The position numbers and the translations under genes were made by a program. From a virus: DNA of 64,000 nucleotides. Each line of letters starts with the position of its first letter. The first letter of the stretch is position 1. The DNA lies in the IMG/VR virus record IMGVR_UViG_3300045391_002864, positions 30,059 through 94,058 of that record; one strand, written 5' to 3'. This document shows positions 1-45,099 of the stretch, one piece after another. Below the pieces are notes generated by a model, which saw only the letters and a list, made by a program, of their open reading frames with translations, was not told the DNA's origin and ran no database searches.

Positions 1-159
1 TGAGGGCGAGTTCGCCTGGGGCGCGACAGAGCCCGGCACGAGCACGACGGAGTGCGCGTTTACGGCCGGATGCGCGATCACGGGCGGGGTATAATCAGGG
101 TGATCCTCATCGATCGTAGGGACATCGATGTGCGGAACTTCAACGAAGACGTCGACCAT
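1..159 (-). CDS. Hypothetical protein, runs off window edge (head module)
   Basis: ATG at 159 just after portal stop, open to window edge (MVDVFVEVPHIDVPT...). Confidence 0.6.
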   Translation of the reverse strand, partial: MVDVFVEVPHIDVPTIDEDHPDYTPPVIAHPAVNAHSVVLVPGSVAPQANSPS

Positions 160-20321: not shown

Positions 20322-20660
20322 GTGACTGAGAAGTGGACTCCTGGCCCGTGGAAGAGGTTCGAGGGCTTGTTTGACGACCGCCCCGGCATCGAGCCGCTTG
20401 GCGGCGACCTGACGATTGTCGTTTGGGGCACGAACAGCGCGGATGACGACGGCGGCGAATGCGCAGCTGATCGCGGCGGCGCCGGACTTGGCGGCGGCCC
20501 TGGCACCGTTCGCGGCATTCTGCGACGCCATGGAGGCCCGTTGAAGGAAGGCGATGCCTTCTACACGCTCATGGTCAGCGGCGGCCCGGTAGCGATCACG
20601 AACGACGACTTCAAGCGCGCTCGCCACGCCCTACTCTTTGCGCGCGGAGAGGTCGCATGA
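20322..20660 (+). CDS. Hypothetical protein (TPGPW family)
   Basis: KWTPGPW N-terminus. Confidence 0.65.
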   Translation: MTEKWTPGPWKRFEGLFDDRPGIEPLGGDLTIVVWGTNSADDDGGECAADRGGAGLGGGPGTVRGILRRHGGPLKEGDAFYTLMVSGGPVAITNDDFKRARHALLFARGEVA

Positions 20661-21124: not shown

Positions 21125-21336
21125 GCGTGAAATCCTTCAAAATGCTGGCGGACAGCAAGATCAGGCCCGAGGTCAAAGCCGGCACGACCGTCTACGACTG
21201 CCACATGTACGACTACGGTTGCGCGAACGACGACACGCGTTTTACCGGAATCGAGCACACGTCGGTCACGCTGGACCCGGCCGGAGGCTATCCGTTCTTC
21301 ACCGTCCCGGTGACTGATCTGGAGGAAATCAAGTGA
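21121..21336 (+). CDS. Hypothetical protein
   Basis: YDYGCANDDTRFTGIEH.SVTL..GGYPFFTVP. Confidence 0.75.
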   Translation: MSVKSFKMLADSKIRPEVKAGTTVYDCHMYDYGCANDDTRFTGIEHTSVTLDPAGGYPFFTVPVTDLEEIK

Positions 21337-21629
21337 GCACGCCCTGGAGCAAAGGCCCGTGGCGCCGCCGCGACAGCAGCGACGTTGTCGACGCGACTGG
21401 CGAGCGCGTTCATTTTGCCGGGCTTCGGCTCCTCATGAACGCCGGCCCCGAGGACAACGCACAAGCCGAGGCGAACACGCGCCTTGCCCTGGCGGCACCG
21501 AGGCTGGTCGACGCGCTTGAAGCTGCGTTGGCCGTCATCCGCATGACAGCCAACGAATCATCCATTCCCAAAGTGGTGCTGGAGTTCGGCGAATTGGCGC
21601 TGGCCGAGGCACGAGGAGAAGTGAAGTGA
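21333..21629 (+). CDS. Hypothetical protein (GPW / AN.RL..AAP family)
   Basis: SKGPW; EANTRLALAAPRLVDALE. Confidence 0.75.
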   Translation: MSTPWSKGPWRRRDSSDVVDATGERVHFAGLRLLMNAGPEDNAQAEANTRLALAAPRLVDALEAALAVIRMTANESSIPKVVLEFGELALAEARGEVK

Positions 21630-21985
21630 AGAAGTTCGATCCCACGAAACCTGTCCAGACCCGCGAAGGACAGCCGGCGCGCATCGTCGCTAGCGATATG
21701 AAAAACGACGTCTATCCCATCGTGGCGATCGTCACAATGCTGGACGGCGAAGAGTGCGTCAGTACGCACACGTCGGAAGGGAAGTTCGAAGCTACATGCG
21801 GTATCAGCATGGGCGATCTGGTGAACATTCCGGAGCGACGGAAGGTCTGGCTTGATATTTGGGCGGACGGCTTTGCTTCCGGCTTCCCGACAGAGGAGTT
21901 GGCGCGCCAGTACGCGTCCCGCACCAGCGGACGTATTATCGCCGTCGCTGTGCCCTTCGAATACGAGGAGCCGAACCATGACTAA
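21626..21985 (+). CDS. Paralog family member 1 (FDPTKPVQTRxG)
   Basis: Aligns with five nearby ORFs. Confidence 0.85.
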   Translation: MKKFDPTKPVQTREGQPARIVASDMKNDVYPIVAIVTMLDGEECVSTHTSEGKFEATCGISMGDLVNIPERRKVWLDIWADGFASGFPTEELARQYASRTSGRIIAVAVPFEYEEPNHD

Positions 21986-22334
21986 GTTCGATCCCACGAA
22001 GCCGGTTCAGACGCGCGGCGGCTTGCCCGTCCGCATTATCTGCTCTGACCGAAAGGATAGCGAGATTCCGATCGTCGCGCTGATCGACAAAGGGGATGGC
22101 GGCGAAGCGGTCGAGTGCTACCGGGCGGACGGCACTGCGTTCAGCAGGTGCAATTCTGACAGAGACCTTGTCAATCTTCCCGAGCGGAAGCGACTCTGGC
22201 TGAACATCACCAAGGGCGGCGCCTCAGTTTACCGACACAAGACCGAGGAGGAGGCCCGGCGCAACGCGTCTCTCTCCATCGTCTATGACCATATTGCATT
22301 TATGATCGAGTACGAGGTGCCGAACCATGGCTAA
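21978..22334 (+). CDS. Paralog family member 2
   Basis: Start MTKFDPTKPVQTRGG. Confidence 0.85.
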   Translation: MTKFDPTKPVQTRGGLPVRIICSDRKDSEIPIVALIDKGDGGEAVECYRADGTAFSRCNSDRDLVNLPERKRLWLNITKGGASVYRHKTEEEARRNASLSIVYDHIAFMIEYEVPNHG

Positions 22335-22677
22335 GCTGAAGCTCGACTGGCCGGTGAAAACTCGCGCCGGCCGCGACGCGATTATCATTGCGACGGACCT
22401 GAAAAACCCGACGCATCCGGTTGCGGCGCGCGTCATGACTGCCAGCGGCGATGAGATCGTTCATCACTTCACGGTCGACGGCCAGTTCAACGCATACAGG
22501 GAGAGCGACGATGACCTCGTCAATGTCCCGAAGCGCAAGCAAGTCTGGCTGAACGTCCATAAGAACTGTGCGGTCTATCACTTCGGCTCTGAGGCAGACG
22601 CACGCGATGCAGTTTTCGAGATGGAAGATCAATATGACGTGATCGCGCGCCTCGTCGAGTACGAGGTGCAGCCGTGA
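22327..22677 (+). CDS. Paralog family member 3
   Basis: PVKTRAGRDAIIIATD..DLVNVP..WLNV. Confidence 0.85.
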   Translation: MAKLKLDWPVKTRAGRDAIIIATDLKNPTHPVAARVMTASGDEIVHHFTVDGQFNAYRESDDDLVNVPKRKQVWLNVHKNCAVYHFGSEADARDAVFEMEDQYDVIARLVEYEVQP

Positions 22678-23027
22678 AGAAGTTCAATCCGGCGCTGCCG
22701 GTGACGACTCGCGACGGGCACCCCGCGCGCATCCTGGCAACGGACCTGAAAAACCCTGCTTTCCCGATCGCGGCTGTCATGACTGACGAGGACGGCGTCG
22801 AGAAGGAGGTTTGCACCTTCACGGCCGAAGGGCGTTTTGCTCACGACGGGCACGAGCGCGACGCCGACCTTGTCAATCCGCCGGCCATCAAGAATCTCTG
22901 GCTGAACATCACGGACGCCGGCCGGGTCTACGCCTATTCCGATAAGGACAATGCCCTTAGCGTTGCAAAATCCGGCCCGCTCGTATATGACGCGGTCGCA
23001 ATTCTTTTTGAATACGAGGCACAATGA
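22674..23027 (+). CDS. Paralog family member 4
   Basis: PVTTRDGHPARILATD..DLVNPP..WLNI. Confidence 0.85.
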   Translation: MKKFNPALPVTTRDGHPARILATDLKNPAFPIAAVMTDEDGVEKEVCTFTAEGRFAHDGHERDADLVNPPAIKNLWLNITDAGRVYAYSDKDNALSVAKSGPLVYDAVAILFEYEAQ

Positions 23028-23392
23028 TGCAGATTAAGAAGTTTGATCCGACCAAGCCCGTGCAGACCCGCGCCGGCCAGCCTGCGACGATTCTCGCGAC
23101 TGATATCGACAATCCGAGCTATCCGATTGCTGCGCGCGTTCGGCGCGAAGACAACAGCCTCGAAGTCATCATGGGATACCGCGCGAACGGGCAGCGTTTT
23201 CCGTTCGCCCATAACGACCACGATCTCGTCAATATGCCGGAAAAGCGGACGCTTTTCATGAATGTCCCGAAACCAGGCGCTGGGTCCATTCGCCACTATT
23301 CCACGGCGGAGAATGCGAAGGCGGCGGCATCTATCCGCCCCGACTTGTTCGAGGCCATCGCGGCGCCGTTCGTGTACGAGGTGCACGAGTGA
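23024..23392 (+). CDS. Paralog family member 5
   Basis: FDPTKPVQTRAGQPATILATD. Confidence 0.85.
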   Translation: MMQIKKFDPTKPVQTRAGQPATILATDIDNPSYPIAARVRREDNSLEVIMGYRANGQRFPFAHNDHDLVNMPEKRTLFMNVPKPGAGSIRHYSTAENAKAAASIRPDLFEAIAAPFVYEVHE

Positions 23393-23607
23393 GCCCGCTC
23401 GCCGAGCCCCGCGCTGAAGTCCAGTTCCAAGTCTATGCCGCCGCCGTGGTACTGTCGCGCGCGCATGGAACGCCGGCCGGTACGCTAAGGGCAATGCCGC
23501 AAACTGACCTCCAGCGCATCGTGGCAGCCGCGAAGAAGTGTCCCTGGCACAATGGCGCGGCGACGTGCCGGAAGGCGGCGGAGCGGCTTCTGGCGGGCCG
23601 GGCGTAG
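23389..23607 (+). CDS. Hypothetical protein
   Basis: GTGA coupling. Confidence 0.55.
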   Translation: MSPLAEPRAEVQFQVYAAAVVLSRAHGTPAGTLRAMPQTDLQRIVAAAKKCPWHNGAATCRKAAERLLAGRA

Positions 23608-23610
23608 GCT

Positions 23611-23958
23611 CTGAGACCGTCCGAATGTCTGACAAGGGCTAAGGCCCTTGTCACGGCTCCGGAGCGCCTAACGAAAGGCGTGCTAGCGCGGGATGCCTCC
23701 GGCGAGCGAGTGTTCCCGCTCGATAAGAGCGCGGTGTGCTTCTGCGCCCTCGGCGCCATTTTCCGCACGCAAGGGAGCCACGATCAGTCCGATGCAGTCC
23801 GCTTTTTGGAGTCGGTAGTCGATGACATGGACGTAGGCGAGTTTAACGACAGCCACACGCACAAAGAGATTTTAGCTCTGTTCGACAGGGCCATCAAAAT
23901 AGCGAGGAGTTTTGAGGATGAGCAGAATGCCTTCCGAGGTTTTGCAGGCGGCGAGTGA
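23611..23958 (+). CDS. DUF6197-like protein, copy 1 (probable CTG start)
   Basis: ARDASG..AVCFCALGAI..FNDSHTHKEILALFDRAI. Confidence 0.7.
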   Translation: MRPSECLTRAKALVTAPERLTKGVLARDASGERVFPLDKSAVCFCALGAIFRTQGSHDQSDAVRFLESVVDDMDVGEFNDSHTHKEILALFDRAIKIARSFEDEQNAFRGFAGGE

Positions 23959-24244
23959 TCTGATCCCGACGCCGGAGAAATGGACGCAGGGCGCGTACGC
24001 GCGCGACGCAGATGGAGAAAGCGTGTCCTGGGATGATCCTGCGGCGGTGTGCTTCTGCTCACAGGGAGCGATACGCAAGGCGAGCGGTGCATCCTTCAAC
24101 GGAGCCGTATTCTTAGCAGAGCGGTATCTGTCGCGAGCGTTCGGCGACGCCGGAATCATCACGTCAAACGATACCAGCAGCCATGCGCGCGTGCGCCGGG
24201 CGTTCAGCGAAGCAATCGAAATGGCGCAAGCCGCAGGAGAGTGA
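23918..24244 (+). CDS. DUF6197-like protein, copy 2
   Basis: WTQGAYARDADG..AVCFCSQGAI..NDTSSHARV. Confidence 0.75.
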   Translation: MSRMPSEVLQAASDLIPTPEKWTQGAYARDADGESVSWDDPAAVCFCSQGAIRKASGASFNGAVFLAERYLSRAFGDAGIITSNDTSSHARVRRAFSEAIEMAQAAGE

Positions 24245-24246
24245 CC

Positions 24247-24606
24247 ATGAAGTTCGACCCCACGAAGCCTGTCCAGACGCGTGACGGGCGCCCGGCGCGC
24301 ATCATCATGACTGATGCGCAAAACGAAAGCTACCCGATCGTCGCCCTGGTGCTGGATGGCGATCAGGAATCGCCAAATTCCTTCACTGCCGAAGGGCGTT
24401 TCTATGTCGAAGAGGACGAAGACGATCTCGACCTCATCAATGTGTCCGAGAAGCGGCGCTTTTGGGTGAACATTCCTCCCGACGGCAGATTCAGCAAGGG
24501 ACACGACAGCGAGGACGCCGCTCGCGCCGCAGTGAAGGGGATTGAGTATCGTTTCGAAGCCATCGCGCACCTCGTCGAATACGAAGTGCCGGCGAAGGGA
24601 GAGTGA
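24247..24606 (+). CDS. Paralog family member 6
   Basis: MKFDPTKPVQTRDGRPARII; GGAG RBS. Confidence 0.85.
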   Translation: MKFDPTKPVQTRDGRPARIIMTDAQNESYPIVALVLDGDQESPNSFTAEGRFYVEEDEDDLDLINVSEKRRFWVNIPPDGRFSKGHDSEDAARAAVKGIEYRFEAIAHLVEYEVPAKGE

Positions 24607-26123: not shown

Positions 26124-26918
26124 ATGCCAGCCTCGTTCAACCCGACCATGCCGCCGTTTCCGTTGGAAGCGGTAGTTATCAGTGCGCAGCCGCCGGGCCA
26201 GCTGATCGTCTACCTCCCGATGCATGGCACCGGCATGCGCGTTCCTGTACGCGTGATGACGTCGGGGCCGGACGATGCCCTCCGCACGAACCAGAAGCCC
26301 TTGCCGCAGCAGGGCACGCACGGGCTTGTCGTGTTCGCCAACGGCGATAGCCGGAACGGGTTTTGGCTAGGATCGTATCCGCCTGGGCTCCTGTCCGCCA
26401 GGACGACCGTGCAGAACGAGCCCGACATCACGTACGAGGCGGCGGACTCCGGGTACTGGCACTACCGAGATTTTACCGGCGCCACGACCACGGCATATCC
26501 GGACGGCACGACGATCGTCGTCTCGCCGACTGGCGCCCCAGGCGCTCCGAACCGGACGATCGTCGAGAACAATAAGCCGGTGCAGCAGACGGTCGAGCAG
26601 ACGCAGCGCGCGCCCTTGGCAGCGCCGTTCGTCATCAATGTCAAGACTGCCGGCGGCGTGACGATCGCCATCAACGGCGACACGGTCACTGTCGACGCGT
26701 CTCAGGTCATGCTCGACTGCACTCAGGCCACCGTCACGGGCAACTTGCAAGTCGACGGCAATATCATGTGTGACGGCAATATCGACGCGGCCGGGTCCAT
26801 GGTCCAGGGCTACGGCACGGACAACGAGATCAATCTGGCCGAACACTACCACGAGGTCGATGGAGTCCAGGGCGGCAGCAGCACGCTCGACACGACTCCG
26901 CCGGTCGCGAACACTTGA
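26124..26918 (+). CDS. Baseplate central spike (gpV/gp5-like)
   Basis: OB-fold LP..GT.GLV.F.NGD...GFWLG, beta-helix VTGNLQVDGNI, apex HxH (EHYH) plus GV.GG. Confidence 0.8.
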   Translation: MPASFNPTMPPFPLEAVVISAQPPGQLIVYLPMHGTGMRVPVRVMTSGPDDALRTNQKPLPQQGTHGLVVFANGDSRNGFWLGSYPPGLLSARTTVQNEPDITYEAADSGYWHYRDFTGATTTAYPDGTTIVVSPTGAPGAPNRTIVENNKPVQQTVEQTQRAPLAAPFVINVKTAGGVTIAINGDTVTVDASQVMLDCTQATVTGNLQVDGNIMCDGNIDAAGSMVQGYGTDNEINLAEHYHEVDGVQGGSSTLDTTPPVANT

Positions 26919-42957: not shown

Positions 42958-45099
42958 ATGACTGAAGTTTGCTCTGTCGACTTTGAAACGTGGGCGCGCG
43001 TTAACATCAAACTCGGCTCCTACCGCTACCTCGTCGATCCCGCCACGCGCTTTCTGATGATGGCCTGGGCGTTCAACGATGGCATGGAGCCGGAACTATG
43101 GTGGCCGGGCCAGCCTCTGCCGGAGCGTATCGTCGATCACGTCCGCAGTGGCGGGATAATGTCCGGCTGGAACGCCATGTCGTTCGAGCGCATCGCCTGG
43201 AGACACATGGGGGCGACGCGGCACGGATTTCCGGAAGTGCGCGATGAGCAATGGTTCGACCCGATGCTCCTCGCCGTCGCGCACAACATGCCGCGCAGTC
43301 TGGAGCAGGCCGCCTCGTTCGTGGGCACGCCGGTCGCGAAAGACAAAGAAGGCCGCCGGCTGATGCTAAAGCTGACGAGCGCAAAGACGACGCCGGACCC
43401 GGATAAAATCAATCCGGCGGAACTCGTCCGCCTCGGCGAGTATTGCCGCACCGACGTCAGAGTCGAGCAGGCCGTGGCGACACGAATGCTGCACTGGCCA
43501 CAGGTCTATCCGTGGCCGCAGATGGTGGCGATCGACCGCGCCATCAATGACCGTGGAATCGCGATCGACGTCAATCTGGTGCAGGGCCTGTATCAAGCGG
43601 CAGTCGACGAGACAGCTAAGATCGACGCCGACATGAACCGCCTGACGAACGGACGCGTGCGCAAGGTGAGCGACATCCAGCGTCTGAAGGACTGGCTCCT
43701 TGAACTCGGCGTGCCGCTGCCACTGAAGCCGGAGAAGCGCACGAGCGAGGACGATGAAGACCTTGCCGACGAGGACGACGGCGGTGTTGTGCTACCCGGT
43801 GCGAAGCTGTCCTACCAGCTGGGCAAGCGCGACATCATGGACCTGCTGGCGCGCCGGGACATCCCCGACATCGCGAGACAGGCCATGGAGTGGCGCCTGG
43901 AAGCGGCGAAGGCTTCCACGAAGAAGCTGAAAACAATGTTGGAGGCAGTCGGCCCGGACGGGCGCGTCCGTTGGATGCTGAAGCTATTCGGCGCGCAGCA
44001 GTCCGGCCGCTGGTCGGGCGCCGTGGTGCAGCCGCACAACTTCGTCCGCGACACGGTCGGCAACGATGACGACGCCGAGAAGGCATTTCAGCGCCGGCAT
44101 GGCCGCAAGCCGGAGAAGGCCGATGCGGACGAAGTGCATCACATCGGCGAGGAGCTAGTCGACGGCGCAGTCGCGGATGCGATGACCGGCAGCAATGAGA
44201 TGATTCGTCTGCTGCAAGGGCCGGTGCTGCCGTTCATCTCCCGCATGATGCGGCGCTGTCTGACGGCCAGGGCGGGCTACACGCTGATCCAGGGTGACTA
44301 CAGCGCCGTCGAGGCTCGCCTGACCGACTGGTTCTGCCAGAACATCGGCACGCTGAAGGCTTACGAGGAAGGCCGCGACGTCTACCGCCTGTTGGCTAGT
44401 ATGATGATGGGCGTGCCCCCGGAGCAGCTGACTCGTGAGCAGCGCCAGCGCGGCAAGGTCTCGAAACTGGCCCTCGGCTTTACGGGCGGGAAGGGAGCGC
44501 TGCTGGCAATGGGCCGGCAGTACGGCATGGAGATCACCGAGGACGAAGCGAAACTGACGGTGAAGCAGTTCCGTGACGCGAATCCCGAACTCGTCAAGTT
44601 CGGCCAGGACATCTACTGCACGGCCTGTCTCGCGGTCACGATCCCGCAGCGCGAATTTCCGATTCCGCCGCTGAATGTCGCGACGTTCCATTTCGACGGA
44701 CAAGCACTGCGCATGAAGCTGCCGAGCGGTCGCAACATCACGTACTGGGGGCCGAAGATTGAAGGCGAGGACGACTTTGGAAGCCCGATCCTCACATGCT
44801 GGCAGATCAAAGGCGGCATCGCCGTCCGGCGCAAGCTATGGAGCGGAATCCTGATCGAAAACCTTGCGAGCGGCAGCGCGGTCGACATGCTGGCCGGCGC
44901 GCTGGTCCGCATCGAGGGTGCGGGAATCCCCGTCGTACTCCATGTCCATGACGGCATCGAGGGCGAAGTTCCTGTTCATGACGCCGAGCGCCTGCTTCCT
45001 GTCTTCCGTGATTGCATGCTGGAGGCGCCGCCGTGGACCCGCATCGGCCATCCGCTGCCGATCGGCGCCGACATCCATATCGGAAATCGGTTCGGTTAA
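42958..45099 (+). CDS. Family A DNA polymerase (APSE/SPO2-like)
   Basis: VDFET, WNA.SFER, YC..DV, SGRWSG, DYSAVEAR, R..GK...LALGF, LHVHD. Confidence 0.93.
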   Translation: MTEVCSVDFETWARVNIKLGSYRYLVDPATRFLMMAWAFNDGMEPELWWPGQPLPERIVDHVRSGGIMSGWNAMSFERIAWRHMGATRHGFPEVRDEQWFDPMLLAVAHNMPRSLEQAASFVGTPVAKDKEGRRLMLKLTSAKTTPDPDKINPAELVRLGEYCRTDVRVEQAVATRMLHWPQVYPWPQMVAIDRAINDRGIAIDVNLVQGLYQAAVDETAKIDADMNRLTNGRVRKVSDIQRLKDWLLELGVPLPLKPEKRTSEDDEDLADEDDGGVVLPGAKLSYQLGKRDIMDLLARRDIPDIARQAMEWRLEAAKASTKKLKTMLEAVGPDGRVRWMLKLFGAQQSGRWSGAVVQPHNFVRDTVGNDDDAEKAFQRRHGRKPEKADADEVHHIGEELVDGAVADAMTGSNEMIRLLQGPVLPFISRMMRRCLTARAGYTLIQGDYSAVEARLTDWFCQNIGTLKAYEEGRDVYRLLASMMMGVPPEQLTREQRQRGKVSKLALGFTGGKGALLAMGRQYGMEITEDEAKLTVKQFRDANPELVKFGQDIYCTACLAVTIPQREFPIPPLNVATFHFDGQALRMKLPSGRNITYWGPKIEGEDDFGSPILTCWQIKGGIAVRRKLWSGILIENLASGSAVDMLAGALVRIEGAGIPVVLHVHDGIEGEVPVHDAERLLPVFRDCMLEAPPWTRIGHPLPIGADIHIGNRFG

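Follow-up and report, generated by a model that had tools for sequence, protein, structure and literature searches.

Introduction

The closest catalogued relatives of the proteins treated here are ORF9 of Haemophilus phage HP1, an 86-amino-acid (aa) protein on which the Pfam family PF26890 was founded, and the PHROG family phrog_4466 (70 aa, function unknown). No papers were found on PF26890, HP1 YO09 or phrog_4466. A motif of the same kind occurs in an array of six small genes, here called c1 to c6, in a stretch of 64,000 bases (the window) that corresponds to bases 30059-94058 of the 94,058-base-pair (bp) IMG/VR phage record IMGVR_UViG_3300045391_002864; the record has direct terminal repeats and is rated complete. 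Like HP1 orf9 and the phrog_4466 family, the window copies lie among early genes near replication genes, and they share the N-terminal barrel motif PV.T/L..G.kA.I..D......YPi.a. They differ by adding a β-α-β C-terminal domain of about 50 aa, which HP1 ORF9 and phrog_4466 lack, and by their number, since the window genome holds six copies against one for HP1 orf9/phrog_4466. The array represents a long-established cluster of paralogs from a catalogued family, and not an active accordion, and the reading that we lean towards, with some reserve, is that each of its six anciently duplicated paralogs is a small early cytoplasmic binder of a conserved partner.

In a gene accordion, recent amplification has produced near-identical copies, and their number shifts rapidly. 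The K3L accordion of poxviruses is reportedly one example. Among phages, tifA of T4 was amplified against toxIN (PMC9391042). The array in the window resembles an accordion in that a small accessory gene has been tandemly multiplied and the c1/c2 and c2/c3 junctions share a repeat, but its copies are only 34-48% identical and several of them have closer relatives elsewhere.

In phage T7, the region from gene 1 (RNA polymerase) to gene 2.5 (single-stranded DNA-binding protein, SSB) carries the small class II host-takeover genes, including that of Gp2, an inhibitor of host RNA polymerase. The family described here resembles the class II proteins in that its gene occupies the same position in ten T7-like loci and its products are small and acidic. 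By contrast, Gp2 has no sequence similarity to the family and lacks an SH3-like barrel. Such barrels, as found in NusG/Spt5 KOW domains, Tudor domains, the CarD N-terminal domain and YorP of SPbeta, resemble the window barrel in having five strands and about 60 aa; the family differs in having its own, far more conserved motif, and there is no sequence relationship and a structural similarity (Z-score) too low for homology.

Family Membership

A profile of the six copies, used in an exhaustive search of public phage and metagenome data clustered at 50% identity, retrieves 7,113 representatives at an expect value (E) of 1e-3 or below and 2,215 at 1e-10 or below; a word-indexed search returned 1,299 relatives of similar length. 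No source names these relatives beyond “hypothetical protein.” PF26890.1 is found on about a quarter of the near-length matches and on nearly all longer ones. In the Atlas, where PF26890 appears as Phage_HP1_YO09, the clusters around c6 are 91-100% viral and 12-18% of their members bear the label. The relatives P0010 and P0012 consist of two N-terminal (N) domains only and yet carry PF26890, so that the label corresponds to the N-terminal module. The six copies are members of a large, almost exclusively viral and uncharacterised family, and not a new kind of system.

The individual copies reach the catalogued entries to different degrees. phrog_4466 is matched by c2 (E 4.8e-5), c6 (E 9.5e-5) and, weakly, c1 (E 9.1e-3), and c3, c4 and c5 give no match to it at E ≤ 0.1. 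An hhalign comparison of A2 with HP1 ORF9 aligned 27 columns with 37% identity over the motif, at E 0.068 and a probability below 1%. Neither the six copies nor their fused relatives had a meaningful match in NCBIfam or in a copy of Pfam-A that apparently lacked the PF26890 model, and a sequence profile search of the PDB gave a best E of 0.86. An earlier note, made by reading this DNA without database searches, had recognised no characterised function in the array. A check for matches to characterised families agrees with it and found none, because PF26890 and phrog_4466 are catalogued but uncharacterised.

The N domain and the unit formed by the N- and C-terminal domains (N-C) recur in several architectures: N-N, N-N-C, N-N-N(-C), N-C-N-C, and proteins of 994-1114 aa with up to five barrels. 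The giant relatives P0123 (994 aa), P0194 (1114 aa) and P0131 (675 aa) have two to five barrels and one C-domain. P0123 and P0131 begin with hydrophobic, membrane-spanning-looking segments and contain an unrelated repeated middle region; the segments suggest that the barrel module may also work while tethered to a membrane. In metagenomic relatives of low guanine-plus-cytosine content (about 250 aa) the N-C unit follows a Cys-rich module (MERKIGEIFEYNGEWYQC...), and in other fusions it follows DUF4406 (PF14359) or a RyR domain (PF02026). The fused relatives are P0200, P0204, P0285, P0267, P0226, P0301, P0280 and P0257.

Organization and Copy Number

The earlier note had described a six-member paralog family at 21626-24606, with every copy intact and c1 to c5 arranged back-to-back and translationally coupled. 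This description is confirmed. The six open frames lie on the plus strand and encode products of 116-122 aa; the overlaps are 8 nucleotides (nt) at c1/c2 and c2/c3 and 4 nt at c3/c4 and c4/c5, and three genes (23389-24244) separate c5 from c6. A search of the 94,058-bp genome with the six-copy profile, to which the six match at E 1e-51 to 3e-54, found no seventh copy. Equally real is the 23/25-nt repeat that had been noticed between two junctions (21962-21986 and 22311-22335), which forms the core of a 66-nt stretch that is 73% identical (Table 1).

The C-terminal E-Y-E codons (GAATACGAGG) contain GAGG, which is well spaced to act as a Shine-Dalgarno sequence for the next overlapping gene. Since these codons hold a putative Shine-Dalgarno sequence, constraints on the protein and on the translation signal coincide at the C-termini of the copies. 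The last strand shows an entropy of 1.0 among the six copies against 2.3 in the family at large, and is therefore more conserved in the six.

Six copies are the most seen within the sampled data, and this number is unusual. About 100 viral or metagenome loci, taken with up to 10 kilobases (kb) on each side, mostly contain one family gene, a few contain two, and one 4-kb fragment carries three; five whole viral records have 1-3 family genes each. A sample of 401 alphaproteobacterial genomes yielded matches in three, at 1-2 copies per genome. Prophage homologs turned up in Alphaproteobacteria only, which hints at the host class of the phage. A tblastn search of cultured phages found two records with a match to c6 and one with a homolog of the gene from the T7-like loci.

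Sequence Conservation

In a full-length alignment the six copies share 34-48% pairwise aa identity and 18 invariant columns, with 36-52% identity in the N-terminal two-thirds and 26-43% in the C-terminal third. The near-invariant N-terminal motif reads FDPTKPVxTRxGR.ARI..D...YPI.A...E...G...DLxNxP. In the family at large the near-invariant residues (c6 numbering, as in Table 1) include D4, K7, P8, V9, T11, R12, G14, R18, I19 and D23, and further along E41, G50, D62, L63 and N65. The earlier note had quoted one motif as shared by all six copies; the scaffold is indeed common, but the motif is kept unequally, as c3 reads LKLDWPVKTRAGRDAIII, c4 reads FNPALPVTTRDG, and c5 has ATI and FMN in place of ARI and WLN. 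The changes at near-invariant positions are D4K, T6D, K7W and R18I in c3, D4N, K7L and E41K in c4, and R18T and W73F in c5.

This gradient is also seen in the bit scores (Table 1). When scored with a hidden Markov model built without the window copies, c6, c2 and c1 are typical members and c5, c4 and c3 fall below the typical level, the central range of the family being 119-144 bits for a model that included the sequences scored. The drift of c3, c4 and c5 suggests either relaxed constraint or a new specificity. The core hydrophobic, glycine and proline positions are retained in all six copies.

That the copies combine a conserved scaffold with variable blocks on one fold, as the earlier note had it, is supported; what falls away is the idea of a special diversification. 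Column entropy among the six correlates with that among the other 99 sequences (Spearman 0.66, p 7e-16), and since the six vary at the columns that are variable across the whole family, no special diversification is needed. The family is mildly acidic, with a median isoelectric point (pI) of 5.5, and the copies range from pI 4.6 (c6, the most acidic) to 8.1 (c5, the only basic one). Net charge is -5 to -10 in four of the six and near zero in c2 (0) and c5 (+1). This mild acidity argues against a general nucleic-acid coat.

Predicted Fold

An AlphaFold model of c6, made with 105 sequences, has a mean pLDDT (predicted local distance difference test) of 90.4 and a pTM (predicted template modelling score) of 0.70. 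It predicts two domains: residues 1-66 form a five-stranded, SH3-like small β-barrel, and residues 67-116 a small and more variable β-α-β domain (strand, helix, strand). Foldseek found nothing in the PDB better than E 0.3, the top rows being eIF5A-like two-domain noise. An exhaustive structural search with the same model reached Z-scores of 3.4-4.3 only. In that search the barrel aligned with NusG KOW, Spt5 KOW and Tudor domains at Z 3.4-4.3 (46-67 residues, root-mean-square deviation 2.3-3.3 Å), and the C-domain resembled PII-like and other β-α-β units. Such Z-scores name a probable fold type; they are too low to tell kinship from a common arrangement. Among viral models in BFVD, matches reach E 1.6e-7, and all of them are uncharacterised phage proteins, from phages of Ralstonia, Achromobacter, Burkholderia, Pseudomonas, Acinetobacter, Escherichia and other hosts.

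P0168, a natural N-C-N-C fusion, was folded to mimic a dimer (pLDDT 76, with all homologs aligned to the second half), and no fold match spanned both of its C-domains. Its C-domain matched T7 Gp2 at Z 4.6 (2wnm; 51 of 59 residues) and 3.7 (2lmc), which is noise level for such small domains, and, for P0168 only, an entry on type I-C CRISPR-Cas3 inhibition at Z 4.8. Gp2 is not among the top 50 matches of the c6 model, and a Pfam sequence search gave no Gp2 match. The resemblance of P0168 to Gp2 and to the Cas3-inhibition entry does not recur with the c6 model and may serve as a lead only.

Genomic Context

In window coordinates, the minus strand carries portal and large terminase genes (0.2-3.7 kb). 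Replication genes occupy 35-52 kb, and those for baseplate and tail follow at 55-64 kb. A run of about 24 kb of small, overlapping and mostly unannotated plus-strand genes includes the array (21.6-24.6 kb). The array is thus placed between the regulatory region and the replication module, which is an early, non-structural region. A scan for promoters and terminators gave nothing above shuffled controls.

Ten T7-like loci (L018, L019, L048, L055, L061, L063 and L084-L087, among them Novosphingobium and Stakelama prophages) have a family gene immediately downstream of that for the T7-type RNA polymerase; genes for SSB, a RusA-type endonuclease and a primase-helicase come after it. A recurrent gene of about 100 aa, of unknown function, adjoins the family gene in six of the ten. 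In the early operon of HP1, orf9 immediately precedes rep. Because three unrelated phage types share it, the placement beside transcription or replication genes marks the family as early or middle and non-structural. A virion-protein reading was rejected on the early-gene context in these three phage types, the structural hints nearby (26124-26918) being sub-threshold. They concern a plus-strand gene of 264 aa in an odd placement, with matches to a baseplate-assembly PHROG at E 3e-4 and to a Phage_spike trimer domain at E 0.004.

Age and Origin

The earlier note had proposed a gene accordion, and this is not supported. In a careful maximum likelihood tree the end branches of the six copies are 0.7-1.5 substitutions per site long, and over the 96 nt that are conserved best the copies still share no more than 63-76% nucleotide identity. 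Synonymous sites are saturated between copies this far apart. Among the six, the tree has a single sister pair, c1 and c2 (support 91/79), which fits their adjacency and shared junction. The remaining copies fall in with proteins encoded on other contigs: c3 and c5 with P0035 and P0085 (96/94), c4 with P0017 (96/79), and c6 with P0119, P0054 and P0083 (81/66). No bootstrap tree out of 200 unites all six, and a tree constrained to a single clade is worse than the careful one by about 18 log-likelihood units; the approximately unbiased test against a quick tree, over 118 alignment columns, gives p 0.72 for the single clade. Whether or not the six form one clade, their divergence indicates that the array is not a recently amplified accordion.

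The array may have grown through homologous unequal recombination between adjacent copies, with c1/c2 as the youngest duplication, in which the junction was retained. This growth would have taken place long ago, and the subtypes c3/c5, c4 and c6 would either predate the phage lineage or have been acquired separately. No close relatives of the phage were found in viral, metagenome and cultured-phage collections, and a metagenome scan gave at most 49% identity. Its family A DNA polymerase (42958-45099, plus strand) shares no more than 32% identity with any polymerase from a cultured phage, so the phage has no close cultured relative.

Possible Functions

In the reading that we lean towards, each copy would be a soluble cytoplasmic protein produced early in infection, whose conserved barrel docks on a partner common to very different hosts and phages. 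Such a partner might belong to the transcription or replication machinery, or be nucleic acid, and the variable loops and the C-domain might tune the action of each paralog. Several points weigh against this reading. The partner and the activity of the binder are inferred, and gene position is the sole ground for the early timing. Structural salt bridges, and not a binding site, could explain the near-invariant charged residues. The fold matches of c6 are weak (Z ≤ 4.3), and both small barrels and β-α-β units are generic predicted folds. At the sequence level, a direct comparison with HP1 ORF9, the founder, falls short of significance, and a single origin in situ is neither established by the bootstraps nor rejected by the approximately unbiased test.

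The array could instead be a panel of anti-defence proteins, each paralog inhibiting or sponging a different host immune component, with an arms race driving duplication and divergence. Small, mostly acidic, non-structural proteins in an accessory region would suit such a role, as would the six copies against 1-3 elsewhere, the alteration of c3, c4 and c5 at otherwise invariant positions, and the weak likeness of a relative's C-domain to small phage inhibitors (the Cas3-inhibition entry and Gp2, Z 4.6-4.8). However, the barrel motif is near-invariant over thousands of phages with unrelated hosts, which is unlike arms-race proteins, and the divergence among the six follows the generic pattern of the family. 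The copies are old and show no recent amplification, and a gene that keeps to the vicinity of RNA polymerase, SSB or rep would sooner serve core phage processes. In the PDB searches, known anti-defence proteins (Acr, Ocr/Ard, Tad, Acb and the like) give no sequence or fold match above noise (profile search best E 0.86, Foldseek 0.3), and a panel of this kind is considered unlikely. The earlier note had suggested anti-defence, sponge and hetero-oligomer roles, and nothing found points specifically to any of them.

A charge of -5 to -10 in four of the six copies (about zero in c2 and c5), together with the median pI of the family, speaks against a factor that binds nucleic acid or regulates transcription or replication of the phage itself, with a different site or structure recognised by each paralog. 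The conserved K7, R12, R15 and R18 on the first hairpin would favour such a factor, and so would the neighbours of the gene: rep in HP1, and RNA polymerase and SSB to either side in the T7-like loci. The barrel also resembles NusG/Spt5 KOW, Tudor, PWWP and CarD-type domains, and barrels of the KOW, Tudor and PWWP types can bind DNA or RNA; yet the Z-scores are only about 4, and Pfam and NCBIfam reveal no helix-turn-helix or other DNA-binding signature. This makes it a quite unlikely explanation. It is very unlikely that the copies are largely redundant leftovers, kept by weak selection or by the coupling architecture, with c3-c5 decaying and no separate function for each copy: the lower scores and lost near-invariant residues of c3, c4 and c5 would be expected of decay, and part of the conservation could be a non-protein constraint where the E-Y-E codons double as a putative Shine-Dalgarno sequence, but all six frames are intact despite a divergence sufficient to destroy unconstrained open reading frames (ORFs), every copy retains the core hydrophobic, glycine and proline positions, and phage genomes are under a strong size constraint.

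A wider proposal, made with much hesitation, takes the barrel and the β-α-β unit as a major unrecognised class of early phage host-takeover proteins at the T7 gene 1.x-2 position, which would dock on a conserved host machine such as RNA polymerase. The six paralogs might then be a graded or hetero-oligomeric set that reaches several targets or defence systems.

Features of the Locus

The coordinates of the array, its junctions and its neighbours are collected in Table 1. The two DUF6197 genes between c5 and c6 form another tandem pair of paralogs and share 36% identity. The protein of the first (23680-23958) matches profile positions 34-110 only, and may be N-terminally truncated or mis-started. 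Upstream of the array, the plus-strand genes at 20322-20660 and 21333-21629, the second of which matches phrog_1273, encode a common N-terminal W-x-x-G-P-W-K/R-R motif; BLASTP aligns 12 residues of the two proteins only (E 7e-4), and their paralogy is uncertain.

Table 1. Features of the six-copy array and its surroundings (window coordinates unless residues of c6 are given; bits, score against the family model built without the window copies).
Feature	Position	Strand	Description
Upstream gene	21333-21629	+	98 aa; phrog_1273 (function unknown); stop overlaps c1 start by 4 nt (GTGA)
c1 (copy 1)	21626-21985	+	GTG start; 119 aa; canonical; sister of c2; 120.1 bits
c2 (copy 2)	21978-22334	+	ATG start; 118 aa; 122.8 bits
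c3 (copy 3)	22327-22677	+	116 aa; most divergent copy; end branch 1.5; 92.4 bits
c4 (copy 4)	22674-23027	+	GTG start; 117 aa; divergent; nearest relative P0017, on another contig; 95.5 bits
c5 (copy 5)	23024-23392	+	122 aa; ATGA overlap; divergent; 101.5 bits
ORF after c5	23389-23607	+	72 aa; start overlaps c5 by 4 nt
DUF6197 pair between c5 and c6	23680-23958 and 23912-24244	+	PF19698, E 2e-9 and 3e-13
c6 (copy 6)	24247-24606	+	119 aa; most canonical copy; 126.5 bits
c1/c2 junction	21957-22022	+	codons EYEEPNHD-stop overlap ATG-ACT-AAG; repeated at 22306-22371
c2/c3 junction	22306-22371	+	second copy of the junction repeat
GAGG/E-Y-E sites	21950-21985, 22300-22334, 22650-22677, 23000-23027	+	one at the C-terminal end of each of c1-c4; putative Shine-Dalgarno
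Conserved blocks	residues 1-23, 30-35, G50, 62-67 (DLxNxP)		in the family and the six copies
Variable blocks	residues 24-29, 36-49, 51-61		in the family and the six copies
C-domain			variable except W73, N75, A92

Significance

The family counts among the larger parts of phage dark matter: it comprises over 7,000 clusters (50% identity), its motif is strikingly invariant, and it has no assigned role. The confident two-domain model and the recurrent place between the transcription and replication genes of unrelated phages provide leads for experiment. The array itself offers a natural series of six members, from the canonical c6, c1 and c2 to the drifted c3, c4 and c5, that can serve as constructs in the search for a partner.

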